Source: an uncultured Opitutaceae bacterium
Lineage (GTDB): Bacteria; Verrucomicrobiota; Verrucomicrobiia; Opitutales; Opitutaceae
Reading direction: 5' to 3'
Assembly: GCA_964541315.1 (NCBI GenBank)
Contig: CAZIQP010000003.1
Location: 1-64,000 of the forward strand
Length of the DNA stretch: 64,000 nt
A program made the translations under genes and the position numbers. This document shows, in pieces, positions 1 to 23,365 of this stretch (positions are counted from its first letter, which is position 1; each line of letters opens with the position of its first letter). The notes below the pieces were generated by a model. That model had not been told where the DNA came from. It worked only from the letters and a program-made list of their open reading frames with translations, and made no database searches.

Positions 1-55
1 CGTCCAGGGAAAATAATCCGCCATTGCTCAAGTTACCAACGGGGCGCCACCGACC

Positions 56-1744
56 TCAGGTTTGGCGGTTTTTTTCCGCCCGCTTCCGGCGCTCCCGCAC
101 CTGGGTAAAGATAAGCGAGACCACCAGCAACACTGTGCCGAGGACCAAGAAGGAAACGATCCGGTAGGTGGAGCCGAACTCGGTGGAAGCCACGACCACG
201 ACGTAGCCGACCGTGAGCAGCAAAGTCAGGTGGCCCATCCAGCGGTACTTCGGGTTTTGCACCATCAGGTTCATCAGGTAATAGGCGAGGGCCACGCCCA
301 CCCACGAGAGGCTGACGTAGGCTCGCGGCATCAGATGGTAGAGTGCGTAGGGGAAGATCACGAACGCACTGGCGAGATAGGCGTTGCGCATCAGCTCGGT
401 TCTCAGTTCGAGCCGCTCTTTTTTCCAATTGAGAATGCGCGCCGTCAGCAGGGCCACGATGCCGAAGCCGAGGCTGATGCCGGACTCCTGTTTGGCGGCC
501 ACCATGTAGGCGAGCACGATGGCGACGTAGATGAAAAAATTGGCGACCACGATCAGGCGGGAGCGGAACCAGAGCGCGGTTGCGACGACCACGAGACTTT
601 GCGCGGACAACCAGATGAACACCTCCGGCGACGGAAAATGCCTCGCGATGGCGACACTGAGCGCCAGATAGCCCGTCATCGCATAGAAAAAGGTCGGAAT
701 CCGGCTCGCTTCGCTTTTCCAGAAGGCCACTGCCAGGCCAAGAAAGACGATGGCGGCGGTGAGATGGGCCGGAGTGAATAGTCCGGTTTCCATTTTTAGG
801 GATTGCAGGAGAAAGATTCCGTAACCTGCACCGCAATTGAACAGCACCGCCGCGATCGTTGCCGGATCATCCAGACTCTTTTCCTTTCTCCGCAAGGCCC
901 CGGCCGTGAAAATCATCGCATACACCAGAAGGAAATAAATCCCGACCACCGGTTCGGCGAGAATTTGAAAAGGCCGTCCCGCCCAGGGGCGGTTGATCAA
1001 CCACAGCAAATAGGTCGAGTAGACGGCGGGAATGGAGAAGACCAACAGGCCCGGCCACTGGTGCCGCACGGCGGCCCAGGCTGCAAACGAAGCCAGGAGG
1101 GCGATACAACCAAAAACGACCCACGGTGTGCCGATCACCAACACAGCCAGCAGACCCATGGAAATGGCCAGACCGAGGAGCCAGGGAGATCGTTGCCGAA
1201 CTGCCACGCCGAGATTTATCGCGGCTGTCGCCAGCAGCAAGAGTGGCGCACCGAGCGACTCGATTTCCATGGCATGGGCGGAGCCGAAGAAAAACAACCG
1301 CAGGGTGGAAAAGAAGAGGAGCACCATGCCTGCGCCGCGAAAAAAACTGGCGAGAAGCTCGAAGGTGTCTTGCCAGCGCCGGGCGACAAACAACAGGCCT
1401 GCAGCGAGGAGGTAACCGAAGGCAGAGGGCGCGGCGGCGGGCTGTCCCGGCCAGGGGAGGGATAACGCAAAACCGACCCCGCAGGTCAGAACCAGTGCGC
1501 CGACGCTGGCGAACCAGTTTTGACCGACGACGAACTCGAGTTCCTCTGCTTCCGGCGGTTTGATGGACACCGGACGGAGCGGCGTGGGTTCCGTGGCCGT
1601 GATGCTTTGTCCGGCTTGGCTTGGCGCCGTGGACGCCAAAGGACCCAGAGCGAGGTGTTGTTCAATGCGCGCCAGCCGTTGCTCAAGGCGCATCAGCGTC
1701 TCGGATAGGGTGGGCTCAGACCGGTTGGTGGAGTCGACGCTCAA
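56..1744 (-). CDS. Polytopic membrane protein, DUF2339-like
   Basis: N-terminal coiled coil (RLEQRLARIEQHL), then 'ELEFVVGQNWFASVG' and many hydrophobic helices, ending 'RIVSFLVLGTVLLVVSLIF'. TTG start is uncertain. Confidence 0.7.
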   Translation of the reverse strand: MSVDSTNRSEPTLSETLMRLEQRLARIEQHLALGPLASTAPSQAGQSITATEPTPLRPVSIKPPEAEELEFVVGQNWFASVGALVLTCGVGFALSLPWPGQPAAAPSAFGYLLAAGLLFVARRWQDTFELLASFFRGAGMVLLFFSTLRLFFFGSAHAMEIESLGAPLLLLATAAINLGVAVRQRSPWLLGLAISMGLLAVLVIGTPWVVFGCIALLASFAAWAAVRHQWPGLLVFSIPAVYSTYLLWLINRPWAGRPFQILAEPVVGIYFLLVYAMIFTAGALRRKEKSLDDPATIAAVLFNCGAGYGIFLLQSLKMETGLFTPAHLTAAIVFLGLAVAFWKSEASRIPTFFYAMTGYLALSVAIARHFPSPEVFIWLSAQSLVVVATALWFRSRLIVVANFFIYVAIVLAYMVAAKQESGISLGFGIVALLTARILNWKKERLELRTELMRNAYLASAFVIFPYALYHLMPRAYVSLSWVGVALAYYLMNLMVQNPKYRWMGHLTLLLTVGYVVVVASTEFGSTYRIVSFLVLGTVLLVVSLIFTQVRERRKRAEKNRQT

Positions 1745-1776
1745 TTGACTTGCGTGGATTCACTGGGTCTTCCGGT

Positions 1777-2286
1777 TTATCCCGAACAGCCGCAGCCTTC
1801 ACCGCCGCAGCCACCATGGGTGTGAGCGTGGCCGGAGCCGGGATCGATGCCCGCTCCGAGCTGGTCGGCCAATCCGCAAAGGATTTGGTAATATTCTTTA
1901 CGCGGCACACCGAGCGCGCAGGAGGCAAAGGTTTCGGCGTCGTCGGACGAGGCAAATTCGCCGTAGTTCACGGTGACGAGCTGGTAGAGCGCCAAGTGGG
2001 GCACCAGGCTGAGCTGCGTCATGTAGATCGGATGCACATAGAGCGTGAATCCTTCCTCGGGCATGTCGCCGTTGGGCTCGGGAAAAGCAAACTCGCCGGG
2101 ATTGAGTCGTGCGCTGTCGAATACCAGCGTGCACGGATAACGCACACAGGTGCGGTCTTTCAAAATAGATTGCAGCTCGGACCAGCCGACGTGCGGGCCG
2201 TATTTCTCGAAAATTTCGAATCCCTTGGCGGCGACATGCGCGTTGAGGGATTGTTTGGCGTCGTTGGCGGTGAGGTGCGTGGCCAT
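1777..2286 (-). CDS. Hypothetical protein with His/Cys-rich C-terminal tail
   Basis: 169-aa ORF, ATG start, 18 bp downstream of the NrfD-like gene; tail HAHTHGGCGGEGCGCSG. Confidence 0.75.
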   Translation of the reverse strand: MATHLTANDAKQSLNAHVAAKGFEIFEKYGPHVGWSELQSILKDRTCVRYPCTLVFDSARLNPGEFAFPEPNGDMPEEGFTLYVHPIYMTQLSLVPHLALYQLVTVNYGEFASSDDAETFASCALGVPRKEYYQILCGLADQLGAGIDPGSGHAHTHGGCGGEGCGCSG

Positions 2287-2304
2287 AGGCGTGGGAAGGT
2301 GCGG

Positions 2305-4047
2305 TTACGGTTTGGTGGTGGCGGCTGCCGGGAACGGGACCGCGGTATCGCCGCGTCCTTCCGGCCGGCCCTCGTTGGCCTTGGTGAGCCGGCCCTGCAA
2401 AATCGGCACGGCCATGCGGAGAAAGATGGTGTAGCAGAGCAGTCCGAGCGCCCAGATCCCGAGACACACGAGCGTTTCGTTGAGCGAAGGCAGATAATCG
2501 ACGACCGCTCCGAGGGGCGTGGGAATGAAACCGGGGATGACCAGGCCCATGCCCTTTTCAATCCAGATGCCGACGATGCTGAGCACGCAGGCGACGTTGA
2601 GATATTTCAGACTCTTGCTGAGAGGCAGCACGAGGATGACCATCGCGATGAGATTAAAACCGATGGCGCTCCAGATCCAAGGCACCAGGGCATGATGGCC
2701 CTCGAGGCCAAGAAAAAGATATTTGGCCGAGGCACCGTGCGTCGTGCCGGAGTAGAATTCCTTGAACACTTCGCACACCAGCAGGAAGACATTGATGATC
2801 ATCGAAACCTGCACGATGCTGCGCAAAATAAACAGGCTGCGGTCGGTGATCATGAGCCGCTCGGTCATCCTGGCGTGGACGATCTGCTCCATCTCGCGGG
2901 TTTCCATCAGGACTTTCAACGACGTGTCCGGCAGGCGCAGGATGCGGGAAGGTTCCTCGGCGATGGCCGTGGCCTCGCGGGCGGTGCCGTGGAGAGCGGA
3001 GACTTCGCCGAATTGATCGCCCGGTCGCGCCGTGCGCGTGATGCGGAACAGACCTCCTTCTTCCTTCTTCACGACGACGCGTCCCTGCAATACGAAAAAG
3101 GCAAAGTGAGAGGTCGTGCCCTGGCGAAGCAAAATATCACCGGCAGCCACATCGATGACCGAGGCACCGGCGAGGGCGCGCTCGCGATCAGCGATAGAGA
3201 CCCAGGCCATTTCGGGCAGCTCGCGGGAGAGTTGATAGAAGTCGGCGAGAGAGGCCGATGTGCCGGAGCGGTTGCTGGCGTCGGTGCCGGTTGCCAGTTC
3301 CTTGGCGGAGCCGCCGGCGGTCACACGCCGGACCACCTGCAGCGCCAGAATGATCAGGGCCGGACCGGCGGTGAAGGCCGAGGCGAGAAAACGCGGGCCG
3401 ACGATCGACGCATTCCAAAAAGGCCGACCGCCCAGACCCACGTAGAGAAAGGCGGTGACGGTGTGGATCGAAATCGCCCACACAATGGCGATGAAAACAA
3501 ACGGGATATAAAACCACCTGGCCGGTTTCCTTTTTTGGTAGCGGCAATAGAGGAGATAGCCGCAGATATGCACGTTGAGCAGGAGGTAACCGTTCAGCAC
3601 CAGAACATCCCAACTGAGCATCGAACGGGGAAAGTTCATCTGTCCGATTCCCGGAATGAGATGCCAGAAGCGGTCGGGCCGGCCGAGATCAACGGTGACG
3701 AAGGCCAGACACATGATGATCGCGGCGACGGCCAGAAGCTCGCCGAAGATGACGAGGTCGTGCAGCTCCTCGTTGTCGTAGATATAGACCGGGATGACCA
3801 TCATCACCGCCGCGGCGGCGACACCGACGAGGAACGTGAAATTGGCGATGTAGACGCCCCAGGAGACTTCGTCGCTCATGCCGGTGACGACGAGACCGTG
3901 GACCAGTTGCTTGGCGTAGGCATTGAGGCCGAGCAGACAGACGACCGTGAGAGCCCCCATCCACAGATAGTAGCGCCAGTCGCCGACGAAGGCGATGTTG
4001 GCGCACCGCCGGAGAAACACGAGGTAGTTGCGGGTGGCGGTGATCAT
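2305..4047 (-). CDS. NrfD/DsrP-family quinone-interacting membrane subunit with inserted cNMP-binding domain
   Basis: 'GMSDEVSWGVYIANFTFLVGVAAAA', 'VDLGRPDRF', 'SMLSWD', 'GIWIEKG' motifs and about 10 TM helices; soluble insert aa ~243-399 containing 'GDQFGEVSALHGTAREAT'. Confidence 0.9.
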   Translation of the reverse strand: MITATRNYLVFLRRCANIAFVGDWRYYLWMGALTVVCLLGLNAYAKQLVHGLVVTGMSDEVSWGVYIANFTFLVGVAAAAVMMVIPVYIYDNEELHDLVIFGELLAVAAIIMCLAFVTVDLGRPDRFWHLIPGIGQMNFPRSMLSWDVLVLNGYLLLNVHICGYLLYCRYQKRKPARWFYIPFVFIAIVWAISIHTVTAFLYVGLGGRPFWNASIVGPRFLASAFTAGPALIILALQVVRRVTAGGSAKELATGTDASNRSGTSASLADFYQLSRELPEMAWVSIADRERALAGASVIDVAAGDILLRQGTTSHFAFFVLQGRVVVKKEEGGLFRITRTARPGDQFGEVSALHGTAREATAIAEEPSRILRLPDTSLKVLMETREMEQIVHARMTERLMITDRSLFILRSIVQVSMIINVFLLVCEVFKEFYSGTTHGASAKYLFLGLEGHHALVPWIWSAIGFNLIAMVILVLPLSKSLKYLNVACVLSIVGIWIEKGMGLVIPGFIPTPLGAVVDYLPSLNETLVCLGIWALGLLCYTIFLRMAVPILQGRLTKANEGRPEGRGDTAVPFPAAATTKP

Positions 4048-4114
4048 TTTGCGCAGAGGTTGAAACGATGGCAGGCGAACATGACGGCAAATTTCCCTTG
4101 GTCTTCAGTCGGTC

Positions 4115-5065
4115 TCATTTGTCGAAGTAGTAGAAGAACCGCGGATTGGTGCCCATTTCCTCCTTCAACTGGATGAAGATGCGCTTCGTCCGCAGGATGT
4201 AGGAAATCTCGCTCTCGGGATCGAGGATGTTGCCGAACTTGCGCGCGCCCACCGGGCAGACTTCGAGGCAGGCCGGATATTTGCCGACGCGGGTGCGCTG
4301 GATGCAGAAGTGGCATTTTTCCATCACGCCCTGTTTGCGCGGGCGGTTTCCGAGGTAGGCCATCTCGGGATTCAGGCGGTCGGCGGGAATCTCGGGCTTG
4401 GTAAAATTAAAACGTCGCGCCCAATACGGACACGCGGCCTCGCAATAGCGGCAGCCGATGCACCAGTCGTAGTCGATCACAGTGATGCCGTCTTTCTCCT
4501 GCCACGTGGCGTTGACGGGACACACCTTCACGCAGGGCGGGTTTTTGCACTGCTGGCACTGGACCGGCATGTAGAAAAAGCCTTTGTCGGGCACTTCCTT
4601 GTCGTCGTAGGTGTGATCGCCTTTCTCGACGTCCATGGAGCCATGCGGCATTTTGAGCACGCGGATGTACTGGATCTCGGGGCTGCGTGACTGGTTGTTT
4701 TCGGCGACACAGGCGTGCACGCATTTGCGGCAGCCAATGCAGCGGGTGAGATTCAACGCGTAGACGAACTCGACCCCGTCCATCGGCTTGAGATCGCGGA
4801 CGTGCGGACGAATTCCGTACTGGTGTTCGACTTCGTTGGTGATGCGTTCGAGCACCTGCTTCATTTCCTGCGGCGTCAGCTCCTTGTAATATTTCTGCAG
4901 GAACTGTTCGGTCGAGGTGTAGTCGCCGAGTTCGCGCAAGGGGGACAGGCTGGTGGCCAGGGCGGTGAGGCCGGCGAAGGCGGCAGTCGAGCGGAGAAAG
5001 CTCCGCCGGTCCAGATTTTTGGAACCGGTTTCGGGAACTGAGGCGGTGGGTTCGGGAAGAGGCAT
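4115..5065 (-). CDS. Tat-exported 4Fe-4S dicluster protein (NrfC/DsrO/PsrB family)
   Basis: Twin-arginine 'DRRSFL'; Cys motifs CIGCRKCVHAC, CQQCKNPPCVKVCP, CIGCRYCEAACP, KCHFC...CLEVCP. Start reset to ATG at 5065, 1 bp after the upstream stop. Confidence 0.92.
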   Translation of the reverse strand: MPLPEPTASVPETGSKNLDRRSFLRSTAAFAGLTALATSLSPLRELGDYTSTEQFLQKYYKELTPQEMKQVLERITNEVEHQYGIRPHVRDLKPMDGVEFVYALNLTRCIGCRKCVHACVAENNQSRSPEIQYIRVLKMPHGSMDVEKGDHTYDDKEVPDKGFFYMPVQCQQCKNPPCVKVCPVNATWQEKDGITVIDYDWCIGCRYCEAACPYWARRFNFTKPEIPADRLNPEMAYLGNRPRKQGVMEKCHFCIQRTRVGKYPACLEVCPVGARKFGNILDPESEISYILRTKRIFIQLKEEMGTNPRFFYYFDK

Positions 5066-5066
5066 A

Positions 5067-5738
5067 TCAGTGCGTGGTTTCTGAATGAGCCGAAGGGGCG
5101 AGGGCGGTGCGCAGGGCGTGCGGGCCGGGAGCCGGCACACGGGTGGGAATGCGCGGAGCGTGAGGATTATGGCAGTTGGCGCAGTCGAGCTTGCCGGCCT
5201 CGCCGAGGGACGTGTTCCAGTAACCATTGATCCGGCCGTGGGCGCCGGCCTCCCAGTCGCGATAGTTCGGACCGTGGCAACTGCCACAAAGCTGCGTGCT
5301 GTCGGCAAACTTGATCTCGCGACCGTCGCGCACTTGCAGGGTTTCGAGATTGGATTCGTTGTGGCAGTTGTAGCAGAGATTGTTCCGGTTGTGCGTGCCG
5401 TGGCCCATGACGATGTCCTTGTGCTCCACCGGCACGATCAGGATGTTGTTGGCATCGAAACGCAGTTGCGGCGGTTTTTTCTTGTCGTGGCACGCATAAC
5501 AGTCGAAGTCCGACAGATCCTCCTTGGCGCGCACCAGATCGGCGTAAGTCTGGCGCCAGGGGGTTTTTTCCAGAAAAGATTTTTCAACGAGCGCGATGTT
5601 CTGGCGCGCCGGCGGATGACCCCACAGATCGCCGAGAAACGCGGCGGCCAGTCCGAAGAACACCAGCACCATGGCCCCGAAAACGTATCCCGTTGGGGAG
5701 GGTTTGGCCGCTTCGGGAGTGGAAGGTTTTAGCTCCAT
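5067..5738 (-). CDS. Membrane-anchored tetraheme cytochrome c
   Basis: N-terminal TM helix; four CXXCH (CYACH, CYNCH, CGSCH, CANCH). Confidence 0.9.
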   Translation of the reverse strand: MELKPSTPEAAKPSPTGYVFGAMVLVFFGLAAAFLGDLWGHPPARQNIALVEKSFLEKTPWRQTYADLVRAKEDLSDFDCYACHDKKKPPQLRFDANNILIVPVEHKDIVMGHGTHNRNNLCYNCHNESNLETLQVRDGREIKFADSTQLCGSCHGPNYRDWEAGAHGRINGYWNTSLGEAGKLDCANCHNPHAPRIPTRVPAPGPHALRTALAPSAHSETTH

Positions 5739-5764
5739 GGCGGGCCGGTGTTGGTGGCGCCGGC

Positions 5765-6094
5765 TTATTTCTTGAAGGCGCGGACCAGAGGAATCAGTGC
5801 CTTCATGTCTTCGTCGCTCAGTCCTTCAATCGCCTTCATGGAAGTCTTGCCGTTCTTGTCGGTGATGCCCTTTTTCATGGCCTCGAAGGCTTGTTCGTCG
5901 GTGAACGCGGACTGGACCTTGGCGTCGGTGAAATCGCCGATGTTGAGTTTTTTTCCCATCTTGGTCTGACCCTTGCCGTCGGGACCGTGGCACTTGGCGC
6001 AATGCTCATCCCAGTTGGCCTGGGCATCGGCGGCGGAGACGACGGAAGTGATACCGAGAAACAAAAGAACGGCGAGCAGATGTTGCTTTTTCAT
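5765..6094 (-). CDS. Periplasmic monoheme class I cytochrome c
   Basis: Signal peptide MKKQHLLAVLLFLGITSVVSA, CAKCH, candidate axial Met in 'KTSMKA'; start reset to ATG at 6094 (109 aa). Confidence 0.9.
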   Translation of the reverse strand: MKKQHLLAVLLFLGITSVVSAADAQANWDEHCAKCHGPDGKGQTKMGKKLNIGDFTDAKVQSAFTDEQAFEAMKKGITDKNGKTSMKAIEGLSDEDMKALIPLVRAFKK

Positions 6095-6142
6095 TTTTGG
6101 GATGGGTTGTCGGGAACGATGGCAGGATGGCGAACTGACAGC

Positions 6143-6156
6143 CTGACTATCGTCAA
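6143..6156. promoter_or_regulatory. Possible FNR/CRP-family box
   Basis: CTGAC-TATC-GTCAA resembles TTGAT-N4-ATCAA; lies between divergent cytochrome genes. Confidence 0.35.
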
Positions 6157-6334
6157 AATTCGTCAGGAGGACTACCAGCACCTTGGTCAAGACTGCGCAT
6201 ATCTTGTTTTCCGATTGGCGGGGAGAAAATGCGCCCGCGCTGTCCGGGCCGCGGCGAAGCAAGATACGCTCATCGGTGCGCAAGTGTTGCGGAGCCGAGC
6301 CCTGCGGTTTCCTGTAACATTGAACCAAGGAAAC

Positions 6335-8548
6335 ATGAAGGCTCCCGAATTATTCCGGTCGGGCCTGGGCGTGCTGACACTCATTCTGTACGTCGGAGCT
6401 GTCCGCGCCGCCGAAGCCGGAAATCGCGGGGCGGCGACTCCTGCGGTGCCCAACAGCGAGTGCATGGATTGTCATGCAGCGGAGTTTAAGCCGCGCAAGA
6501 AGGGGCTGCCGCCCGAATGGATCGGGGTGAAGCCCGAGGTGTTTGCCGGATCAGCGCATGGCAAGCTGAACTGTGTGGAATGCCACACCACGATCACAGA
6601 GTCGCCGCATCCCTCCAAGCTGCCGCCGGTCCAGTGTGTGTCCTGCCACGAAAAATCAACCGGCCAACACGCCTTTCATCCAAGGCTTGCGCTCACGCCC
6701 GTGCCAGACGGCAAGGACACATCGTGCAAGGAATGCCATGGCTCCCATGACACGGTGGCGGTGAAAAAGAACGGGTTTTCCTTTGCCAGTTCCCGGCAGA
6801 CCGAGACCTGCGGGCGCTGCCACGAGGGGGCGCAGAAAGCCTATCTCGCCTCGGCCCACGCGGTGACACCGGCCGGAAAGGAACGCATCACGCCCGACTG
6901 TCTTGGTTGTCACAAGGAGCGGATCGCCAGCCAGGGGCCGCGCCGCTCGCTCGGGGAGTTGAAACTCGCCCAGGCGAAACTTTGCGAATCCTGCCATGTG
7001 GGGAAATCCGAGGTCGTCTCCAAATCCAGTTTTGGGGCGAAGTTCGTTTCGTCGTTTGACCACTCCGTGCACGGGGCCGCATTGCAAGCGGGCCGCGCGG
7101 AGTCCGCCGGTTGCATCGATTGCCATGGCGCGCATGCGATGAACAAAGCCGCCGTCGCCGGGGCCAAAATAAACCGGATCAACCTCACGGGGACCTGCGC
7201 CAAGTGCCATCAGCAGCAGGCGAAGGAATTTGCGACCAGCGTGCATGCGATCGCCCTGAACCAAGGGAATCTCGATTCGGCCGGCTGCACGAATTGTCAT
7301 GGCGAGCACGACATCCGGCAACACACCGATCCGGCTGCGCCGGTGCACAAGGCCAATCTGGCACGGCAGGTCTGCGCCGAGTGTCATGCCTCGGTCCGTC
7401 TCACCAAGCGTTACGGACTCTCGAGCGACACGTTCAAAACTTTTTCCGACAGCTATCATGGGCTCGCGGTCAGGGGCGGTTCAGTGGAGGTGGTGAATTG
7501 CGCGAGCTGTCACGGTGTCCACGCCATCAAGTCGCAGGACGATCCGACTTCCACCGTCAACAAGGCCCATCTCGCGCAGACTTGCGGCGCGTGTCATCCC
7601 GGTGCCAACACCCGGTTCGCCATCGGGGCGGTGCACGCCAGCGAGTCGAAGCGCGAATCGTCGCCGTGGCTCTATTGGATATCTTCGCTCTACCTCTGGC
7701 TGATCATCGTGGTGGTTGGAGCCATGGCCGGGCATAACCTGCTCGATTTTACCAGGAAGACTCGCCACAAGCTCGCGGTCCAGAAAGGCGAGGCCCTGGA
7801 GCTGCACGTCGCGCACCGGCTCTATCTGCGGATGACTGCCCATGAACGCCTGCAGCACGGTTTGCTCGTCATCAGCTTCGTTGCCCTCGTGATCACCGGC
7901 TTCATGCTCCGTTTTCCCGAGGCTTGGTGGGTGGTCGGCATTCGTCGGTTCAGTTCCGGTGCCTTTGAGCTGCGCAGCCTGGCGCATCGCATTGCCGGGG
8001 TCGTCATGCTGCTCGGGGGCGCGTGGCATATCGGGTATCTTGCGTTTACGCGGCCCGGCCGGTCGCTCTTTTGGGATCTCCTGCCGCGCTGGCGTGATGT
8101 CACGGATCCGTGGGGCGTACTGAAATACAATCTCGGCGTCGTGAAAGACAAACCCGCTTTCGGCCGTTTCAGTTACATCGAGAAAGTCGAATACTGGGCT
8201 CTCGTCTGGGGCACGCTGCTCATGGGTGCTACTGGCGCGATCCTCTGGTTCGAGAATGCGTCGATGGGATACTTCACCAAGCTCGGCTTCGATGTCGCCC
8301 GCACGGTTCACTTCTACGAGGCGATTCTCGCCACGCTGGCGATCATCGTCTGGCACTTCTATTTCGTCATCTTCAACCCCGACGTTTATCCGATGAACCT
8401 TGCCTGGCTCACCGGCCGGATGTCCGAAGCTGAGATGAGGGAGGAACATCCGCTTCAGCTTGAACAAATGAAAGCAGCAGAACGGGCCGCTGCGGATGCG
8501 GCGAAGCCACCGGTTGGGAAGGAACGGCCACCAGGAAGCGCGGCGTGA
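6335..8548 (+). CDS. CbcL-like multiheme cytochrome c fused to cytochrome b (13 CXXCH)
   Basis: AAGGA RBS before ATG 6335, signal peptide, 13 CXXCH, C-terminal FdnI/HydC-type cyt b domain (ERLQH, AHRIAG, EKVEYWA, VHFYEAILA, WHFY). Confidence 0.9.
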   Translation: MKAPELFRSGLGVLTLILYVGAVRAAEAGNRGAATPAVPNSECMDCHAAEFKPRKKGLPPEWIGVKPEVFAGSAHGKLNCVECHTTITESPHPSKLPPVQCVSCHEKSTGQHAFHPRLALTPVPDGKDTSCKECHGSHDTVAVKKNGFSFASSRQTETCGRCHEGAQKAYLASAHAVTPAGKERITPDCLGCHKERIASQGPRRSLGELKLAQAKLCESCHVGKSEVVSKSSFGAKFVSSFDHSVHGAALQAGRAESAGCIDCHGAHAMNKAAVAGAKINRINLTGTCAKCHQQQAKEFATSVHAIALNQGNLDSAGCTNCHGEHDIRQHTDPAAPVHKANLARQVCAECHASVRLTKRYGLSSDTFKTFSDSYHGLAVRGGSVEVVNCASCHGVHAIKSQDDPTSTVNKAHLAQTCGACHPGANTRFAIGAVHASESKRESSPWLYWISSLYLWLIIVVVGAMAGHNLLDFTRKTRHKLAVQKGEALELHVAHRLYLRMTAHERLQHGLLVISFVALVITGFMLRFPEAWWVVGIRRFSSGAFELRSLAHRIAGVVMLLGGAWHIGYLAFTRPGRSLFWDLLPRWRDVTDPWGVLKYNLGVVKDKPAFGRFSYIEKVEYWALVWGTLLMGATGAILWFENASMGYFTKLGFDVARTVHFYEAILATLAIIVWHFYFVIFNPDVYPMNLAWLTGRMSEAEMREEHPLQLEQMKAAERAAADAAKPPVGKERPPGSAA

Positions 8549-8738: not shown

Positions 8739-10913
8739 GTGAGACACGCAGCGTCATTGTCTTCCTGGCCGGCGCGTTGGTCGGTTGGCTTGTTTCTGCT
8801 CGCGGCCGGGTCTGTCGGAGCGGCTGAAAATGCCGTGGTTCCGATCGCAACGGCGGCGGTGAAGAGAGTCGACTGTGCGAACAGCGACTGCATGGAATGC
8901 CATGTCGCGAAATTCAAACCGCGCAAAAAGGGACTGGCCCCCGAATGGGTCGGGGTGAAGGCGGAAGTTTTCGCCAAGTCGGTGCATGCCAAACTCAATT
9001 GTGTCGATTGCCATGCCACCATCGTGGAGACCCCGCACGATGCGAAATTGCCGTCGGCCCAATGCGTCAGTTGTCACGAAAAACCGGCCAATCAATACGC
9101 CAACAGCATCCATGGCATCAGCCACCAGATGGGTGCTTCGGAAGCCGCGTCCTGCGCGAGCTGCCATGGCACGCATGACATGGTGCCGGTCAAACAGATT
9201 GATTCACCCGTCTTCAAGTTCAACCTGTCGAAGACATGCGGCACCTGTCACGACAACGCGAAATTGACGAAAGAGTACCGCATGGGGCAGACCGAAGCGG
9301 CAGGGCACTACAACGATAGCATTCACGGCAAGGCGCTCGTCAAGATGGGCCTGATAGTCGCGCCTTCGTGCAACGACTGCCATGGGGTCCATGATATCAA
9401 GCGCAGCGTCGACAAGGACTCGCACACCAATCACGCCAACATCGCCAAATCTTGCGGTACGTGTCACCTTGGCATCGAGGAAACGTACAACGCCAGCGTG
9501 CACGGCCAGCTCCTGCTGAAAGGCGACAAGAAAGGCCCGGTGTGCACGGATTGTCATAGCGCGCACGATATCGAGAAACCTGCTTCCGCCCACTTCAAGG
9601 CGGGCAGCGACCAGAGCTGCGGCAAATGCCACGAAGACCGGCTGGAGCACTACCGCGAAACCTATCACGGCAAGGCGATGGCGCTCGGCCAGCCCAACGT
9701 CGCTTCGGACGTCGCGGCCTGTTACGATTGCCACGGCCATCACGATGTTTTCCCGGTGAGCGATCCGCGCTCGCGCCTGCACAAGGACAAGATTGTCGGC
9801 ACCTGCTCGCAATGCCACCCGGGAGTGAACGCCAGCTTCACGAAATACGCGCCGCATGCCAACCCGTTGGACAAGGTCAACTATCCGCTCCTCAACAAGG
9901 TTTTCCTGTTCATGACCGCTTTGCTCGTGGGCGTGTTTTCATTCTTCGGGTTGCATACCGCCTTCTGGCTCTTCCGTTCCGTCTATCTCTACCTGCATGA
10001 TTCGAAGAAATTCCGCGAGGCGGTGGTCTCGGCGAACGCGGATGACGACACCTATACCCGCTTCACCCCGTTTGAGCGGATGCTGCATCTGATGATGGTG
10101 ACGAGTTTCCTCACACTCGTGATCACGGGCATGCCACTGAAATTCTATTACACGGACTGGGCGAAGGTGATGTTCCGTTTCATCGGCAGCGCCGAGGTGG
10201 CCCGCACACTGCACCACTACGCGGCGGTCGTGACGTTCGCCTACTTCACCCTGCACGTGGGCAGCCTTATCCCGGAATTTTGGCGCAAGCGCCACAGCCT
10301 CCGCGATCCCGCGACCGGCAAGCTCTCGCTGCAATGCGTGTGGGCGACGATTTTTGGCCCCGACTCGATGGTGCCGTCGTTCCAGGACTGGCGTGATTTC
10401 ATTGCCCACCAGAAATGGTTCTTCGGCAAGGGACCCAAGCCGCAGTTCGACCGCTGGACTTATTGGGAACGCTTCGACTATTTCGCGGTGTTCTGGGGCA
10501 TCGCCATCATCGGGTTCTCCGGCCTGATCCTCTGGTTCCCGAAGTTCTTCACGCTCTTCCTGCCCGGCTGGATCATCAACATCGCCATGGTGGTGCATTC
10601 CGACGAGGCGCTGCTGGCTGCCGGCTTCATCTTCTCATTCCACTTTTTCAACACGCATTTCCGCATCGAGAAATTTCCGATGGACACAGTCATCTTCTCG
10701 GGCCGAATTTCTAAGACCGAGATGCTGCACGAGCGGAAACGCTGGTACGACCGCTTGGTCGCCGCCGGTCGGTTGGAAATCTATCGCATCAAGGCCGACG
10801 ACTGGGAAGGCCGGAAGAACATCGCCAAGACGATGGGCTTTATCTTCTTCGGCACCGGCCTGATTCTGCTCGCACTCATCATCTACGCGATGGTTTCACG
10901 GCTGGGGCATTGA
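8739..10913 (+). CDS. Second CbcL-like multiheme cytochrome c/cytochrome b fusion (11 CXXCH)
   Basis: GTG start, signal peptide, 11 CXXCH, cyt b domain (ERMLH, LHHYA, ERFDYFAVFWG, VHSDEALLA, FHFFNTH). Confidence 0.9.
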   Translation: MRHAASLSSWPARWSVGLFLLAAGSVGAAENAVVPIATAAVKRVDCANSDCMECHVAKFKPRKKGLAPEWVGVKAEVFAKSVHAKLNCVDCHATIVETPHDAKLPSAQCVSCHEKPANQYANSIHGISHQMGASEAASCASCHGTHDMVPVKQIDSPVFKFNLSKTCGTCHDNAKLTKEYRMGQTEAAGHYNDSIHGKALVKMGLIVAPSCNDCHGVHDIKRSVDKDSHTNHANIAKSCGTCHLGIEETYNASVHGQLLLKGDKKGPVCTDCHSAHDIEKPASAHFKAGSDQSCGKCHEDRLEHYRETYHGKAMALGQPNVASDVAACYDCHGHHDVFPVSDPRSRLHKDKIVGTCSQCHPGVNASFTKYAPHANPLDKVNYPLLNKVFLFMTALLVGVFSFFGLHTAFWLFRSVYLYLHDSKKFREAVVSANADDDTYTRFTPFERMLHLMMVTSFLTLVITGMPLKFYYTDWAKVMFRFIGSAEVARTLHHYAAVVTFAYFTLHVGSLIPEFWRKRHSLRDPATGKLSLQCVWATIFGPDSMVPSFQDWRDFIAHQKWFFGKGPKPQFDRWTYWERFDYFAVFWGIAIIGFSGLILWFPKFFTLFLPGWIINIAMVVHSDEALLAAGFIFSFHFFNTHFRIEKFPMDTVIFSGRISKTEMLHERKRWYDRLVAAGRLEIYRIKADDWEGRKNIAKTMGFIFFGTGLILLALIIYAMVSRLGH

Positions 10914-11077: not shown

Positions 11078-12172
11078 TTAGCGTACCACGCGGGCGCCGC
11101 CGCCGCTGATGGTCTTTTCGACTTCCCTGCGGGTGGCCATCGAGGTGTCGCCGGGGGTCGTCGAGGCGAGGGCGCCGTGGGCGGCACCGTACTCGACGGC
11201 TTTCTGCGCGTCGTTGAATTCCATGAAACCGAACTGCACGCCGGAAGCGAAGCTGTCGCCACCGCCGACGCGGTCGAGAATCTCGAGGCCGGGATACTGC
11301 TTGCTCTCGTGGAATTTACCGGCGTGCCAGAGAATGGCGCTCCAGTCGTTCTTCGTGGCGGTAATGACGTGGCGCAGCGTGGTGGCGGCGACCTTGAAGT
11401 TCGGGAATTCCTTCACGGCGGTCTCGATCATTGCCTTGAAGGCGTCGGTCTCGATGTGGCCGAGGGTTTCCTGACCCTTGACGGCGAAGCCGAGTGACGC
11501 GGTGAAGTCTTCCTCGTTGCCAATCATGACATCGACATACTTCGCGATCTCGCGGTTGACTTCCTGGGCTTTCTTGAGGCCGCCGATGGTTTTCCAGAGC
11601 GAGGGACGGTAGTTGAGATCATAGCTGACGATCGTGCCGTGTTTGTTGGCGGCCTTGACGGCCTCGACAGTGAGCTCGGCGGTGGTGGCGGAAAGGGCGG
11701 CGAAAATACCACCGGTGTGAAACCAGCGCACACCGAGTTTGCCAAAAATATGGTCCCAATCGATGTCACCGGGCTTGAGCTGGGAGGCGGCGGTGTTGCC
11801 GCGGTCAGGATTGCCGACGGCGCCGCGGATGCCGAAGCCGCGCTCGGTGAAGTTGAGGCCGTTGCGGACGGTGCGGCCGATGCCGTCGTCCTCGCGCCAC
11901 TTGATGAAGTCGGTGGCGACGCCGCCCTGCATGATGAAATCCTCGACGAGGTGGCCGACCTCGTTGTCGACGAAGGCGGTGACGACGGCGGTTTTATAGC
12001 CGAAGCATTTGCGGAGACCGCGGGAGGTGTTGTATTCGCCGCCGCCTTCCCAGACTTGGAAGTTGCGGGCGGTGCGAATGCGGCCCTCGCCCGGGTCGAG
12101 GCGCAGCATGACTTCGCCGAGCGAGATCTGGTCGAAGGCGACGGATTTGGCAGGTTTGATTTGGAGGCTCAT
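11078..12172 (-). CDS. kdgK: 2-dehydro-3-deoxygluconokinase (PfkB family)
   Basis: GEVMLRL, GGGEYN, SYDLNYR, DRVGGGDSFA motifs; clustered with eda and kduID. Confidence 0.88.
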   Translation of the reverse strand: MSLQIKPAKSVAFDQISLGEVMLRLDPGEGRIRTARNFQVWEGGGEYNTSRGLRKCFGYKTAVVTAFVDNEVGHLVEDFIMQGGVATDFIKWREDDGIGRTVRNGLNFTERGFGIRGAVGNPDRGNTAASQLKPGDIDWDHIFGKLGVRWFHTGGIFAALSATTAELTVEAVKAANKHGTIVSYDLNYRPSLWKTIGGLKKAQEVNREIAKYVDVMIGNEEDFTASLGFAVKGQETLGHIETDAFKAMIETAVKEFPNFKVAATTLRHVITATKNDWSAILWHAGKFHESKQYPGLEILDRVGGGDSFASGVQFGFMEFNDAQKAVEYGAAHGALASTTPGDTSMATRREVEKTISGGGARVVR

Positions 12173-12241
12173 GGGTGTAGAGGAGATTTTTAACCACTAA
12201 TGCACACTAAGGAGACACTAATGGTCGGAAGTTGGCGGCAG

Positions 12242-13339
12242 TTAGATTGTGACGGTCTTGAAGGACTCGGTTTTCCAGAGCGGTTGCCTGGCTTCGGTGG
12301 CGAGTTCGTTGAAGGCATCGACCTCGGCTTTGGAGAAGAGCAGACCGCCGGCCGCGGCGGTGTGTTTGGCCCAGTTGGCTTCGAGCTGGCCGGGAAGCAT
12401 GGCCTTTTCGTTGCCGTGGCCGAGGACATCGTCGATGACGGCCTTCACGTTTTGTTTCTGGTTGCGGCCCTTCGCAAAGGCGCCGCCGTTGATCGCATCG
12501 GGATGGATGACTTGGAAAAAAAAGACGCAGGTGCCCTTGTCGCCCCCGGCTTTGTCCCAGCGATTGCGGATGGTCGGAAGGGAACCGCCGATGAAGCCGC
12601 CCACGATTTCATTGATGAGCGAGAGACCGTAGCCTTTATGCGCTCCGAACGGGAGGAGTGAGACGGCGAGATTCGGATCGGTGGTCGGATTGCCATCCTT
12701 GTCCACGGCGGCCATCGGCGGGAGCGGCTTGCCTTCGCGCTTGAGCTGTTGCACACGGCCCATGGCCACGACGGACGTGGCCCAGTCGATCACGATCGGG
12801 TAGCCAACAGCATCGGTCGTGGGAAAGCCCCACGAGTGGGGATTGGTGCCGAGGGTGGGGAACTTGCCGCCGAAAGGAACAACTTCGGCGAGAGCGGCGG
12901 TGCAGTTCGTGTAGGCGATGTAGCCTTTTTTCGCAGCATCCATCACATAGCCGCCGCCCCAAAGATAGTGGAAGGCGTTGTCGACGGAGATGGTGCCGAC
13001 GCCGTATTTGTCGGCGAGGCGCATGGCCTCGTCCATCGCGCGGTAGGCGGTGGATTGACCGAGTTTTTTGTTGGCGTTCCAGATTTTGGCGGCCTCGAAT
13101 TTCGAGGGCTTCACTTCGATCTGCGCGCCGGGCACGCAGCCTTTGGAGCCGGAGCCGAAGAGGTGGTCTAGGTGGAGGGCCTTGATGCCGTTGTGGGTGC
13201 GAATGCCGTGGCGCGAGGCCTCGGCGCAAAAGCGCGCGCCTTCGGCCGATTCATCGGCAAGGAAACCGCGGTGCATGTAAGCCGCGGCCACAAGGGCATT
13301 ATGCTGGGATTCGGGGACAATGAAGAATTGTTCGGGCAT
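12242..13339 (-). CDS. Ldh_2-family oxidoreductase (AllD/YiaK/ComC-like)
   Basis: GIRTHNG, LGTNPHSWG, IDWATS, PTTDP, PFGAHKGYGL, LPG motifs. Confidence 0.85.
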   Translation of the reverse strand: MPEQFFIVPESQHNALVAAAYMHRGFLADESAEGARFCAEASRHGIRTHNGIKALHLDHLFGSGSKGCVPGAQIEVKPSKFEAAKIWNANKKLGQSTAYRAMDEAMRLADKYGVGTISVDNAFHYLWGGGYVMDAAKKGYIAYTNCTAALAEVVPFGGKFPTLGTNPHSWGFPTTDAVGYPIVIDWATSVVAMGRVQQLKREGKPLPPMAAVDKDGNPTTDPNLAVSLLPFGAHKGYGLSLINEIVGGFIGGSLPTIRNRWDKAGGDKGTCVFFFQVIHPDAINGGAFAKGRNQKQNVKAVIDDVLGHGNEKAMLPGQLEANWAKHTAAAGGLLFSKAEVDAFNELATEARQPLWKTESFKTVTI

Positions 13340-13389
13340 GGGAGGCGAAAGAGAGTTCTTGAAATAGGGCCTACAGGTTTAAGCTTTTC

Positions 13390-14370
13390 TCAGACGACCT
13401 TCTTGGTCGGGACCTCGGGGTTGATCTGGGCGAGGGGTTTCTCGCCGTTCATGGCGAGGATGAGGTTTTTCACGGAGGCGGTGGCCTGGCGGACGACGCT
13501 CTCGTAGGTGCGCGAACCGACGTGCGGCGTGCAGACGCAGTTCGGGAGCTTGAGCAGCGGGTGGTCGGGCGTCGGCGGTTCGGTGTCCAGCACGTCGGTG
13601 CCGTAGCCACCCACCTGCCCGGACTTGAGGGCTTCGACCATGTCGGCGGTATGGACGATCTCGCCGCGGGCGCAGTTGAGGATGAGCACCCCCTTTTTCA
13701 TTTTCGGGAATGATTTCGCGCTGATCATGTCGCGCGTCTCCGGCGTGAGATTGGTGTGGAGCGAGAGATAATCGGAAACAGCGTAGACTTCGTCGAGGGT
13801 GGCGGCGCGCTTCACGTTGTGGGCGGCGGCGAATTTTTCGTCCCAATAAAGATCGAAACCGATCACATTCATGCCGAAGGCACGGGCACGGATGGCGACT
13901 TCTTTGCCAATGCGGCCGAGCCCGATGATACCGATGGTTTTCTCGAGGAGCTCGTGCCCGGTCTTGCGTTTCCAGGTGTTGGCGCGCGTGGAGTCGGTAT
14001 GGTAGAAAAAGTTTTTCTCGAGGGCGAGGAGGAGCAGGAACGTGTGCTCGGCCACCGTGGTGTGGTTGACACCGGGCGTGAAGAGGAGAGGCAGGCCGAA
14101 TTCGGTGCAGGACTTGACGTCGATCTTGTCGACGCCGATGCCGTATTTGCTGATGACTTTCAGACGCGGGCGGGCTTTTTCCAGAACTTTGCGGGTGATC
14201 ATGTCGTCGCCGCAGATGTAACCGTCGATGTCGCCGACGAGCGCGAGGGTGTCGGCTTCGTTGAGCGGGCCGCGGGCGCGGATGATTTCCCATCCGGTGG
14301 CAGCGAGGAGCTGGTGATGCTCGCCCGGCGTATCTTGAAATGAAGTGGTGGTAAGGAGTATACGGGTCAT
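13390..14370 (-). CDS. D-isomer-specific 2-hydroxyacid dehydrogenase (SerA-like, no ACT domain)
   Basis: GIGVDKID, VAEH, GIIGLGRIG, NCARG, DVLDTEP, TPHVG. Confidence 0.88.
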   Translation of the reverse strand: MTRILLTTTSFQDTPGEHHQLLAATGWEIIRARGPLNEADTLALVGDIDGYICGDDMITRKVLEKARPRLKVISKYGIGVDKIDVKSCTEFGLPLLFTPGVNHTTVAEHTFLLLLALEKNFFYHTDSTRANTWKRKTGHELLEKTIGIIGLGRIGKEVAIRARAFGMNVIGFDLYWDEKFAAAHNVKRAATLDEVYAVSDYLSLHTNLTPETRDMISAKSFPKMKKGVLILNCARGEIVHTADMVEALKSGQVGGYGTDVLDTEPPTPDHPLLKLPNCVCTPHVGSRTYESVVRQATASVKNLILAMNGEKPLAQINPEVPTKKVV

Positions 14371-14382
14371 GGAGAAAGCAGG

Positions 14383-15024
14383 TTACAGTTTCACGGCGGC
14401 GGCAGCGGCGACAAACACCTTGGCACGGGCCGTGATGGCGGCCCAATCGCCGGCCTTCAACGCGGCGGCGGCCACGAGCGAACTGCCGGCGGCGGTGGCG
14501 AACGCGCCGGCTTTGAGGAAATCGCCGAGAGTTTCAGGCGTGACGCCGCCGGTGGGCAGGAATTGCAGGTTCGGGAAAGGAGCCTTGAGTGATTTGATGT
14601 AGGCGGGACCGAAAAATTCGGCGGGGAAAATCTTGATGACGTCGGCCCCGAGTTCGTGGGCGCTGTACGCTTCTGTCGGGGTGAGCGCACCGGAAAGAAT
14701 TGGAACGCCCGCTTCACGGCACACCGCGATAACGGTGGGGCGGAGCGCCGGGGTCACGATGAATTTCGCGCCGGCCGCGATGCCCTTACGGGCCGTGTCG
14801 GCATCAAGCACGGTGCCGAGCCCGAGGAGGACTTGCGGCAGCTCCTTGGCGACCAGGGCGCACATTTCCAAGGCTCCCGGCGTGGTCATCGTGAGCTCGA
14901 TGCAATTGAGCCCGCCGGCGGAAAGCGCGCGGGCGCAATCGAGGAGACTGGATGAGCTGTCGGCGCGGATGAGGGCGATGACTTTCTCGGTTTTGATGCG
15001 GTTCAGAACGTCGGATTTGGACAT
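14383..15024 (-). CDS. eda: KDPG/KHG aldolase
   Basis: IELTMTTP, GLGTV, FIVTP, GALTPTE, KIFPA, PTGGV. Confidence 0.9.
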   Translation of the reverse strand: MSKSDVLNRIKTEKVIALIRADSSSSLLDCARALSAGGLNCIELTMTTPGALEMCALVAKELPQVLLGLGTVLDADTARKGIAAGAKFIVTPALRPTVIAVCREAGVPILSGALTPTEAYSAHELGADVIKIFPAEFFGPAYIKSLKAPFPNLQFLPTGGVTPETLGDFLKAGAFATAAGSSLVAAAALKAGDWAAITARAKVFVAAAAAVKL

Positions 15025-15093
15025 GGCAGAGGGGGGAATGAGATGAATTGTCGGACGAGAATCGGGCGACGGGATGGGGTAGGACTTTATGGC

Positions 15094-15933
15094 TTAACGG
15101 ACCCCGGCGACAGCAAAGTGCGGATCGGTGTAACCGATCAGCCGTGAGAGTTCACTGGCGGCGGCCTTCACATCTGCGGCCATCTGCGGAATGCGCTCTT
15201 TGGGAAAACGGACGGTGGCGGCGGTGATCCCGATGGCGGCGACACAGGTGCCGTCGGAGGAATAAACCGGGGCGGCGAGGCAACGGACGCCGAGATGAAA
15301 TTCCTCGTCATCCAGGCTGAAGCCCCGTTTGCGGGTGATTTCGGTTTCACGGCGGATTTCCGCCGCCGTGGTCTGGGTGTGAGCCGTGCGCTTGACCGGT
15401 GGGAACCGTTTGATGATTTCCTCGATCCGGGCTTGATGCAAACAGGCCAGAAAGGTTTTGCCGGTGGAGGAGCAGTGCAGTTCCGCCAAGAAACCGGGAC
15501 GCGAGGCGGCACGGAGTGGGTGGGGGCTGTCCTGCACGGCCACAATGAGCGAACGGTCGTCGCAGGGAATCGCCAGGTGGCAGGTTTCGGAGATCTGCCC
15601 GGTCAGTTTTTCCAGGACGGGCAGGGCGGTGGTGCGGATTTCCGTGCCGGCGAGTGAGGCGGTGCCCAATTGGATCAAGACCGGGCCCAGTTCAAACTGG
15701 TTGCCGTGCTTCCGCACCAACCCTTCCAGATGAAGAGTCGTCATGATGCGCAGCGTGGTGGTGACGGGAATGCCCAGCCGGCGCCCGATATCGGCCGCCT
15801 TAAAACTCTCCGTCGAGCTGCTCAGTAATTTGAGAATGCGGCACGCGTTGCGCAGATTGGGAATGACGTAGCGTTCCTGACTGGAGACACTGGGCGGGGT
15901 CGGAGTGGGCGGGGCTATCTGCCGGGTGGGCAT
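15094..15933 (-). CDS. IclR-family transcriptional regulator (KdgR-like role)
   Basis: N-terminal HTH (DIGRRLGIPVTTTLRIMTTL), ETCHL, HCSSTGK, RGFSLDDEEFHLGVRCLAAP. Start placed at ATG 15933. Confidence 0.9.
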   Translation of the reverse strand: MPTRQIAPPTPTPPSVSSQERYVIPNLRNACRILKLLSSSTESFKAADIGRRLGIPVTTTLRIMTTLHLEGLVRKHGNQFELGPVLIQLGTASLAGTEIRTTALPVLEKLTGQISETCHLAIPCDDRSLIVAVQDSPHPLRAASRPGFLAELHCSSTGKTFLACLHQARIEEIIKRFPPVKRTAHTQTTAAEIRRETEITRKRGFSLDDEEFHLGVRCLAAPVYSSDGTCVAAIGITAATVRFPKERIPQMAADVKAAASELSRLIGYTDPHFAVAGVR

Positions 15934-16016
15934 GGAGGGGAGAGAAGTTATGTTGGGGATGATCGAAAAGGAAAGTGGAGCAGAGAAGAATATTTTCTTG
16001 CCAAATAGCACCATAG

Positions 16017-16047
16017 TTCAGATATGAATGTCAATTTCATTAGTGAA
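16017..16047. promoter_or_regulatory. Tandem palindromic operator candidates TTCA-N4-TGAA
   Basis: TTCAGATATGAA (16017-16028) and TTCATTAGTGAA (16036-16047), interleaved with minus-strand TTGACA hexamers at 16029-16034 and 16060-16065. Confidence 0.55.
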
Positions 16048-16521
16048 TATCAACAGGCATGTCAATTTAGCTTATCACCACCACACGCTCACCCCGATGG
16101 AAACCCTATCTGTTTTCGGACAGTACTTGCGGCGTTGCTCCCGGTGTGCCCGGTGCGGTTCAGTTTGCCGGTTTCCACCGTCAATAACCTTGGTCTTTTG
16201 TTGACCCAAGCCGCAGACCTTCCCTCCCGGCGCCACCACATGAACCATGCGAGCCACATCAGCCTCAAGTTTTGGCGGCATGTTCTGGAACTTGCCACCC
16301 TGTCTTTCAGGCCGGTGCATTTTGCACACCCGCTCATTTTCGCTCAACTTTCATCGCAGCGAATTCCCGCAACAGCATGCACTCTTGGAATAGCCAGGAA
16401 ACCCGCCCGGTGGCGCTTGAGCCACAAGGCAGGCCCAACTGTCCGGTCGTTCATCAAGCAAGTTGCTGTGGACATGATCCGGCCGTTTTATACATTCTAA
16501 ATTTCCCCCAGCCCCTTCTTT

Positions 16522-17352: not shown

Positions 17353-17388
17353 TTCTCTTTTGCTCCCAACCCACCCTTTGCTTACCAC

Positions 17389-18156: not shown

Positions 18157-18166
18157 AAATTTTCCC

Positions 18167-19390: not shown

Positions 19391-19498
19391 TGCCGCGCCA
19401 TCCGGCAAACCGCCTGGCCGACGGATCACGACGGACTGACATCATTTTCCGTCGGCGCATTTTTCCTTAGACACGAGCCACCGATCCGCCACCACGGC

Positions 19499-23364: not shown

Positions 23365-23365
23365 T

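Follow-up and report, generated by a model that had tools for sequence, protein, structure and literature searches.

A gene near the start of a 64,000-nucleotide stretch from an uncultured Opitutaceae bacterium (assembly GCA_964541315.1, contig CAZIQP010000003.1, positions 1 to 64,000; hereafter the window) raises the question of whether a respiratory quinone enzyme can be controlled directly by a cyclic nucleotide. The gene encodes a DsrP-type membrane subunit of the NrfD family into which a cyclic-nucleotide-binding (CNB) domain is inserted. The NrfD-CNB fusion is real and recurrent, and is a minority state among its relatives. As judged from sequence, binding of a cyclic nucleoside monophosphate (cNMP) probably tunes the quinol turnover of the complex directly.

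A CNB domain interrupts a DsrP-type subunit

The domain composition proposed in the initial annotation was borne out by profile searches, and all of the motifs quoted there were present. Pfam NrfD matched residues 54-244 of the 580-residue protein (E 3e-37, 129.3 bits against a cut-off of 25.8), Pfam cNMP_binding matched residues 300-383 (E 4e-16, 59.1 bits against 27.5) and NCBIfam DsrP (NF045798) exceeded its cut-off of 350 bits with a score of 407.6. The anticipated split of the host around the CNB match was seen in the DsrP profile, which matched in two stretches, and in close unfused relatives, which aligned to residues 1-243 and 399/400-577 with a three-residue loop in between. As these relatives stop at residue 243 and resume at 399/400, the insert was taken to be residues 244-399. 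The location annotated initially (2851..3321) was right, but included one host codon too many. The accompanying statement that NrfD subunits are normally about 300-400 aa did not hold for this subfamily, the unfused members of which are about 410-430 aa. The features of the gene are as follows.

2305..4047, minus strand: 580-aa NrfD membrane subunit of DsrP type that carries the CNB insertion, with 10 transmembrane helices predicted
2851..3318, minus strand: insert, residues 244-399 (156 aa), in place of the three-residue loop between transmembrane helices 5 and 6 (TMH5-TMH6), from alignment with unfused relatives
3262..3318, minus strand: N-terminal linker, residues 244-262, of variable length (17-24 aa across the 79 of 80 loci parsed)
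2851..3261, minus strand: CNB domain, residues 263-399, with N-terminal helices, beta-barrel and B and C helices, from Pfam and structural matches
2968..3009, minus strand: phosphate-binding cassette, residues 347-360 (G347, E348 and R357 invariant, residue 358 variable)
3034..3036, minus strand: beta5 Arg338, invariant, in the same column as an Arg in domains 2 and 4 of Plasmodium PKG
2842..2868, minus strand: M394-D402, where the C-helix ends and joins TMH6 at a fixed length (M394, E396, R397 and L398 invariant)

Comparison with unfused alleles placed ITD (400-402) in the host sequence, outside the insert. A likeness of T401 to the adenine-binding Thr of CRP was considered, and was rejected because ITD belongs to the host.

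Logan contigs of run X1 (2200-3784) and run X3 (2783-3406) crossed both junctions with 0 differences, and in run X2 each junction was crossed on a separate contig; no single listed contig covered the whole 2.1 kb, and one of the three runs may be the source sample. Misassembly, named at the outset as a possible refutation, was ruled out by these junction-spanning contigs and by the recurrence of the fusion in other genomes.

Predicted fold, topology and quinone-site residues

An AlphaFold2 model built from a 125-row alignment (pLDDT 89.5, pTM 0.88) had ten membrane helices, with the CNB domain between the sixth (216-243) and the seventh (402-432). A pTM this high in a two-domain model is in keeping with the domains having a defined relative position. 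The best structural matches of the subunit were ActC chains of alternative complex III (Z 36-38, root-mean-square deviation (rmsd) 2.8-3.5 over 374-383 residues), which share its ten-helix topology at 13-20% identity, and PsrC was matched at Z 21.7. The model and these matches thus display the NrfD/PsrC fold of two four-helix bundles with optional A and B helices. In the available part of the ActC description, both termini lie on the N side and the helices run A, 1-8, B (PMC8076601); the TMH5-TMH6 loop would therefore lie on the N side. The insert-bearing loop is accordingly predicted to face the cytoplasm, in support of the location first proposed. Positive-inside counts were mixed: the strongest basic loops were inside, while the outside loop 122-142 carried three Lys/Arg and the inside loop 90-96 none.

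When residues were mapped by piecewise spacing against the DsrP1 numbering rather than by direct alignment, 15 of the 20 residues in the DsrP1 Table 2 (PMC8076601) fell on identical residues, four did not, and His266 was off by one. The quinone-site and proton-path residues retained were Y66, T71, Y88, E103, D120, S142, D147, Y154 and H195, together with T198, R208, R219, S223, E426 and K498. By the same spacing, S142 and D120 supply the conserved Ser and acidic residue of the P-side quinone site of the NrfD/PsrC family. The subunit therefore resembles DsrP of DsrMKJOP both in passing its profile cut-off and in keeping the quinone-site and pathway residues, including the Lys of TMH8.

The CNB domain matched those of MloK1, Rv0998, PKG and HCN structurally (Z 15-17, rmsd 1.9-2.5). 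It shares the CNB fold and an intact cassette with MloK1, SthK, the HCN and CNG channels and the Mycobacterium tuberculosis acetyltransferase Rv0998. In channels, the CNB domain follows the last membrane helix, whereas here it lies inside a loop of a redox protein, anchored on either side and more tightly through its C-helix. It also departs from the CRP/FNR class, since its C-helix continues into TMH6 instead of a helix-turn-helix. The alignments to MloK1 ended at 397/348 and 399/350, and for three HCN2 entries the end fell at 397/632; we take MloK1 348 and HCN2 632 to be the ligand-contacting arginines of the C-helix.

Conservation of the ligand pocket

G347, E348, R357, A359, R335, R338 and R397 were invariant in 115 of 115 full-length proteins, a set drawn from the best insert matches in which four members were copies or near-copies of the query. 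A second set comprised the 80 retained of 176 GTDB stretches encoding a relative (53-77% identity over the insert region), and all 80 matched the whole insert with its flanks. In it, G347, E348, R357, R335, R338, M394, E396, R397 and L398 were present in all 80 loci and A359 in 78, conforming to the cassette pattern Gly-Glu...Arg-x-Ala, while neighbouring surface positions of the domain varied freely. The intact cassette Glu and Arg noted initially were thus found in every homologue compared. As a control, other CNB-like regular-expression matches in related genomes had the cassette Arg in 21/31 and the beta5 Arg in 4/31 (20/26 and 4/26 once five matches that looked spurious by eye were removed). 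Because the ligand-contact residues are invariant in more than 100 homologues, the domain likely binds a ligand.

The ratio of nonsynonymous to synonymous substitution rates (dN/dS) was compared over 417 of 3240 pairs with a host dS of 0.05-0.8, the pairs being non-independent. The median was 0.33 for the CNB domain, against 0.09 and 0.18 for the host halves, and the CNB value was below 0.5 in 91% of pairs; by this measure the domain is under purifying selection. The M394-D402 junction was nine residues long in 79/79 loci parsed, whereas the N-terminal linker varied in length. FNR- and CooA-type regulators use Cys/His ligands; the present insert contains no Cys, and across the 80 loci Cys never exceeded a minority in any column. 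One of the 80 fused genes (L106:9123-10822) was split over two frames in its N-terminal host half, by a frameshift or a sequencing error.

Distribution, gain and loss of the insert

The same architecture was found widely. With residues 225-425 as query, 841 matches were obtained among 5606 candidates, and 119 of the best 120 carried both Pfam domains. The 80 GTDB carriers, all metagenome-assembled genomes (MAGs), comprised 77 assigned to Verrucomicrobiota or a sub-taxon, two to Bifidobacterium/Bifidobacteriaceae and one to 'bacterium'. In the two Bifidobacterium/Bifidobacteriaceae records (L080, L113), the fused gene lay amid Verrucomicrobiota-type neighbours, and these records are likely mislabelled or mis-binned. 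The fused gene has been retained in records of Opitutaceae and Akkermansiaceae as well as of subdivision 3. Among 24 genomes of the same genus, the fused gene was present in six and a close unfused gene in two; the present query retrieved no close homologue from the other 16. A draw of 400 genomes across the phylum gave 14 with a match at E 1e-20, three fused and 11 unfused only. Carriers came from peat, lake, groundwater and rhizosphere samples. Runs containing at least half of the sequence words were ten rhizosphere metagenomes, which may be one campaign, and one peat metagenome; no RNA run was among those listed as containing the locus sequence.

The closest 120 proteins by the N-terminal half included, by our own count, 44 with the CNB domain and 76 without. 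On a host-only FastTree of 199 rows, there were at least 12 changes between the fused and unfused states, six of them forced by starred branches. A host tree of 41 rows, chosen after the larger tree had been viewed and with junction-flanking columns removed, required 11 changes (three forced), and the approximately unbiased (AU) test rejected a single fused clade (p 1.1e-4). A three-residue loop with a central Tyr was present in 74/74 in-group unfused alleles; distant unfused proteins had the same loop length in 10/10 and an aromatic residue there in 8/10. The unfused alleles thus retain the ancestral loop, which a series of precise deletions could scarcely have brought back. The flanks travel with the state: K403 was found in 72/74 unfused alleles but not once among the residues listed for fused ones (114 of 115). 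Residue 172 ranked second among columns for association with the state; it lies in the first bundle, in the cytoplasmic loop between TMH3 and TMH4, and may be a docking contact for the CNB domain or a sign of mere shared ancestry. Some fused pairs differed by 3-4% in the N-terminal host half and by 35-39% in the insert, their inserts belonging to different clades. These patterns suggest that there was likely one insertion, followed by exchange of alleles through homologous recombination, with the CNB domain as an optional cassette. A donor of the insert was not found among proteins of 78-249 aa (three matches of 56 candidates, apparently fragments of fusions), and a search in the Atlas returned generic CNB clusters only.

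The operon resembles Cbc4 rather than DsrMKJOP

The neighbouring genes are listed below. Neighbour counts are over the 80 loci, many of which are short.

56..1744, minus strand: DUF2339 membrane protein (36/80 loci)
1777..2286, minus strand: conserved 169-aa protein, directly downstream of the fusion gene (74/80 loci; also beside unfused alleles)
4115..5065, minus strand: DsrO/NrfC-type iron-sulfur protein with a twin-arginine (TAT)-like signal, 16 Cys and four [4Fe-4S] motifs (76/80 loci)
5067..5738, minus strand: tetrahaem cytochrome c with 4 CXXCH and an N-terminal hydrophobic segment (75/80 loci)
5765..6094, minus strand: monohaem cytochrome c with a start codon picked by eye (66/80 loci)
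6203..8548, plus strand: CbcL-like multihaem cytochrome c with cytochrome b561, 13 CXXCH in frame, start approximate
8739..10913, plus strand: second CbcL-like multihaem cytochrome c with cytochrome b561, 11 CXXCH
C2:43-5095 (another contig of the source genome), minus strand: ImcH-like NapC/NirT hexahaem cytochrome, 745-aa porin-like protein and DmsE-like heptahaem cytochrome

The operon thus runs from the monohaem and tetrahaem cytochromes through the four-cluster iron-sulfur protein and NrfD-CNB to the 169-aa and DUF2339 proteins, with the CbcL-like pair divergent. The adjacent iron-sulfur protein is of the NrfC/PsrB four-cluster type that partners the NrfD family, and scored 171.9 bits with NCBIfam DsrO, below the cut-off of 200. 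The 169-aa protein showed a weak minigluzincin/IrrE-like fold (best Z 8.6), lacked HExxH and had a tail rich in His, Cys and Gly. As contig C2 overlaps the start of the window by 55 exact bases, the ImcH-like, porin-like and DmsE-like genes adjoin the operon. The porin-like protein had no Pfam or NCBIfam match and was named from position and analogy; it and the heptahaem gene were each found at 33/80 loci. CbcL and ImcH architectures are as described in the accessible portion of PMC6295460.

The three-gene core agrees with the definition of Cbc4 of Geobacter sulfurreducens (CbcS/CbcT/CbcU, GSU0068-0070), an anchored tetrahaem cytochrome, a four-[4Fe-4S] protein and an integral membrane subunit (bioRxiv 10.1101/2025.04.14.648717, available text); the likeness is one of gene composition, and here the core stands alongside ImcH-like and CbcL-like genes. 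The same text mentions no sensor domain for Cbc4, the role of which is itself unassigned there. A locus that joins DsrO and DsrP homologues (DsrOhPh) to a tetrahaem cytochrome has been described in cable bacteria and others, outside dsrMKJOP and also in organisms without sulfur metabolism, with a proposed role in quinone-to-periplasm transfer (PMC13047784, in the portion available). The present operon is like it in gene content, but no CNB domain is described in that portion and the cable-bacterial TMH1 gene was not seen here.

DsrJ of DsrMKJOP is a trihaem cytochrome, whereas the cytochrome here is tetrahaem and the DsrP-type subunit bears a 156-aa insert. No dsrA or dsrK match was found in the source genome (92% complete), no DsrK scored above the cut-off in 5/5 fused genomes searched, and no dsrM-like gene was seen among the annotated neighbours, no search with a dsrM family having been made. 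By sequence content, then, the operon is built like Cbc4 and not like DsrMKJOP. Nor is it an alternative complex III operon (actABCDEF), as neither ActB nor ActF is encoded in it. An ActC-like gene with a pentahaem cytochrome occurs elsewhere in the source genome (C45:12491-17945) and probably belongs to a separate alternative complex III.

The porin-like and DmsE-like genes fit the conduit proposed for porin-multihaem cytochrome clusters of Verrucomicrobia; the words 'NrfD' and 'quinol' are absent from the main text of that paper, as available (PMC5615132). A scan for CRP boxes in the 64-kb window gave 14 matches against 17.8 expected, and no sigma-70-like promoter was seen in window positions 1-6600.

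How ligand binding could act on quinol turnover

The family and the gene context suggest that the complex likely oxidises quinol and hands the electrons to periplasmic cytochromes. Quinol would react at the periplasm-side site (Y66, D120, S142, D147), and electrons would pass through the iron-sulfur protein to the tetrahaem cytochrome, and from there to soluble cytochromes and into the porin-cytochrome conduit encoded alongside. On the other side of the membrane, a cNMP, most likely cyclic AMP (cAMP), is predicted to bind the cassette (G347, E348, R357). The C-helix with R397 would then close on the ligand and shift the second helix bundle, since the C-helix is joined to TMH6 at a fixed length while the N-terminal linker is loose. 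Turnover would change as a result. Activation is slightly favoured over inhibition by a weak analogy with the activation of Shewanella mtr genes by cAMP-CRP, through which cAMP governs extracellular electron transfer (PMC4417206, available text). Control in Shewanella is transcriptional, whereas that proposed here would be direct and post-translational. The architecture, the cassette and the predicted location in the initial functional reading stood; the Cbc4-like complex, the turnover of the insert among relatives and the mixed character of the pocket, with cAMP-type and cyclic GMP (cGMP)-type features, had been passed over.

Several observations weigh against direct control of turnover. Unfused alleles are common and are 88-94% identical over the N-terminal half, and so the complex works without the CNB domain. 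The domain evolves faster than the host halves, and conservation is inflated in both homologue sets because their members were picked for resembling the insert. The C-helix endpoints disagree in two of the HCN entries (5khj, 3u11). The invariant R338 is a cGMP-type feature that blurs the ligand call. Cyclases and the NDH-2-CNB fusion described below were found in unfused genomes too, and neither separated fused from unfused. The direction of electron flow is read from family and gene context, and the proposal as a whole from sequence and a structural model. Finally, the residues essential in QrcD lie in the quinone site and the first-bundle proton path (TMH1-4), while the TMH8 Arg, equivalent to K498 here, was dispensable for growth, and R358A kept about half of the activity (PMC13059093, available portion). 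The insert is attached to the second bundle (TMH5-6), and any gating would therefore be indirect; a pull on TMH6 is, by analogy, remote from the proven QrcD pathway.

This remoteness would suit a CNB domain that binds a cNMP and controls assembly, stability or the recruitment of a cytoplasmic partner, such as the 169-aa neighbour or an NADH dehydrogenase, instead of catalysis. The invariant residues E330, R335 and Q345, which lie outside the pocket, could form an interface for such a partner, and a soluble 169-aa protein follows the gene at most loci. Against this, unfused alleles (L141, L142) have the 169-aa gene beside them as well, and the fixed junction between the C-helix and TMH6 suits mechanical coupling. 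Control of assembly or partners is regarded as rather unlikely, although it deserves a real share of the probability.

Direct tuning could also hold with a ligand other than cAMP, namely cGMP or another cyclic or 6-oxo-purine nucleotide. R338 aligns with an Arg found in domains 2 and 4 of Plasmodium PKG, and this PKG-type beta5 Arg was present at 80/80 loci, against the 4/31 of the control matches. We take its column to be the cGMP-contact position of PKG (R297), which was put into PKA as G316R. PKA carrying both the Arg and the Thr of PKG favours cGMP or binds the two nucleotides equally, while single mutants lose selectivity rather than switch (PMC3765617, PMC4565163). The second determinant, Thr or Ser directly after the cassette Arg, is replaced by Glu (E358) in the present protein; over the 80 loci, residue 358 was mostly Val (24), Met (22), Thr (12) or Glu (10).

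The enzymes that would supply the ligand were also surveyed. Two class III cyclases were found in the source genome, and at least one in 16/16 relatives searched. From 32 loci, only part of the matches, 29 cyclase domains could be parsed; 28 had the Lys and all 29 the Asp/Thr of what we take to be the adenylyl-type signature, and none had a guanylyl-type signature. As Thr is rare at residue 358 and adenylyl-type cyclases occur in the source genome and its relatives, cAMP is likely the physiological ligand, although the pocket may take either cAMP or cGMP, and a different ligand seems unlikely. The two cyclase genes of the source genome are neighbours (C148:5316-9322), and one of them also encodes kinase-dimerisation-like and receiver domains. 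No cyclase or phosphodiesterase was present among the 25 neighbour clusters of the fusion gene that were scanned.

That the insert is a tolerated passenger, folded but no longer signalling, would fit its patchy presence, with at least 12 changes of state on the host tree, and its weaker constraint relative to the host. It fits poorly with ligand-contact residues that stay invariant amid freely varying surface positions, with dN/dS below 0.5 in nine-tenths of pairs and with retention across three groups of Verrucomicrobiota records, and is considered improbable. An assembly or gene-calling artefact, for which one might cite the 409 contigs of the source genome, the position of the gene 2.3 kb from a contig end and the MAG origin of every listed GTDB carrier, is already refuted for practical purposes by contigs from separate runs that cross the junctions without differences, by the identical insertion site in more than 100 divergent proteins and by a similar GC content at third codon positions in the insert (0.78) and the host halves (0.80 and 0.78).

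Related sensor fusions and implications

A second quinone enzyme in the source genome carries a comparable fusion.

C118:10235-12271 (= L131:988-3024), minus strand: type II NADH dehydrogenase (NDH-2) fused to a CNB domain (intact cassette, Arg-Thr) and CBS domains

The NDH-2-CNB-CBS protein was full-length in 8/17 genomes: 5/10 with the fused NrfD gene, 3/3 with a close unfused gene and 0/4 with distant unfused genes. A sensor fused to a quinone enzyme may thus be a design that recurs. A DsrP-type protein with two C-terminal CBS domains (P0124) forms a cluster of 24 members, and these domains are likely another cytoplasmic nucleotide sensor on the NrfD family. Two further variants were seen: a 616-aa DsrP-type subunit fused to a multihaem cytochrome (P0127), and an 859-aa DsrP-type subunit with a long C-terminal region that had no Pfam match and appeared beta-rich by eye (P0132).

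Tentatively, a cyclic nucleotide might throttle both ends of the quinone pool, with entry controlled via NDH-2-CNB-CBS and exit toward extracellular acceptors via an NrfD-CNB plug-in cassette that is gained and lost by recombination, yielding regulated and unregulated alleles. The control of bacterial respiration by cAMP is known to run via transcription, through CRP; a sensor built into the quinone-reactive subunit would be a direct, fast control of a respiratory enzyme. The literature searched, which left subscription journals mostly outside its scope and did not cover supplements, contained no description of an NrfD-CNB fusion, nor of any ligand-sensing domain on a quinone-reactive NrfD-family subunit. 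Alleles with and without the insert that are about 90% identical occur naturally and form a ready control pair; one unfused allele belongs to a cultured bacterium, Opitutus sp. GAS368. With a ligand acting as a handle on TMH6, it could further be examined whether the second bundle takes part in proton coupling, which is disputed. The habitats of the carriers are settings in which Verrucomicrobiota have been proposed to respire humic substances.

Beyond the operon, window positions 11078-25300 look by eye like a region for pectin or hexuronate use; its genes, which we named from the look of their sequences and not from scans, are presumably a sugar kinase, an aldolase, an IclR-type regulator, an isomerase, a transporter and a pectin-esterase-like protein.

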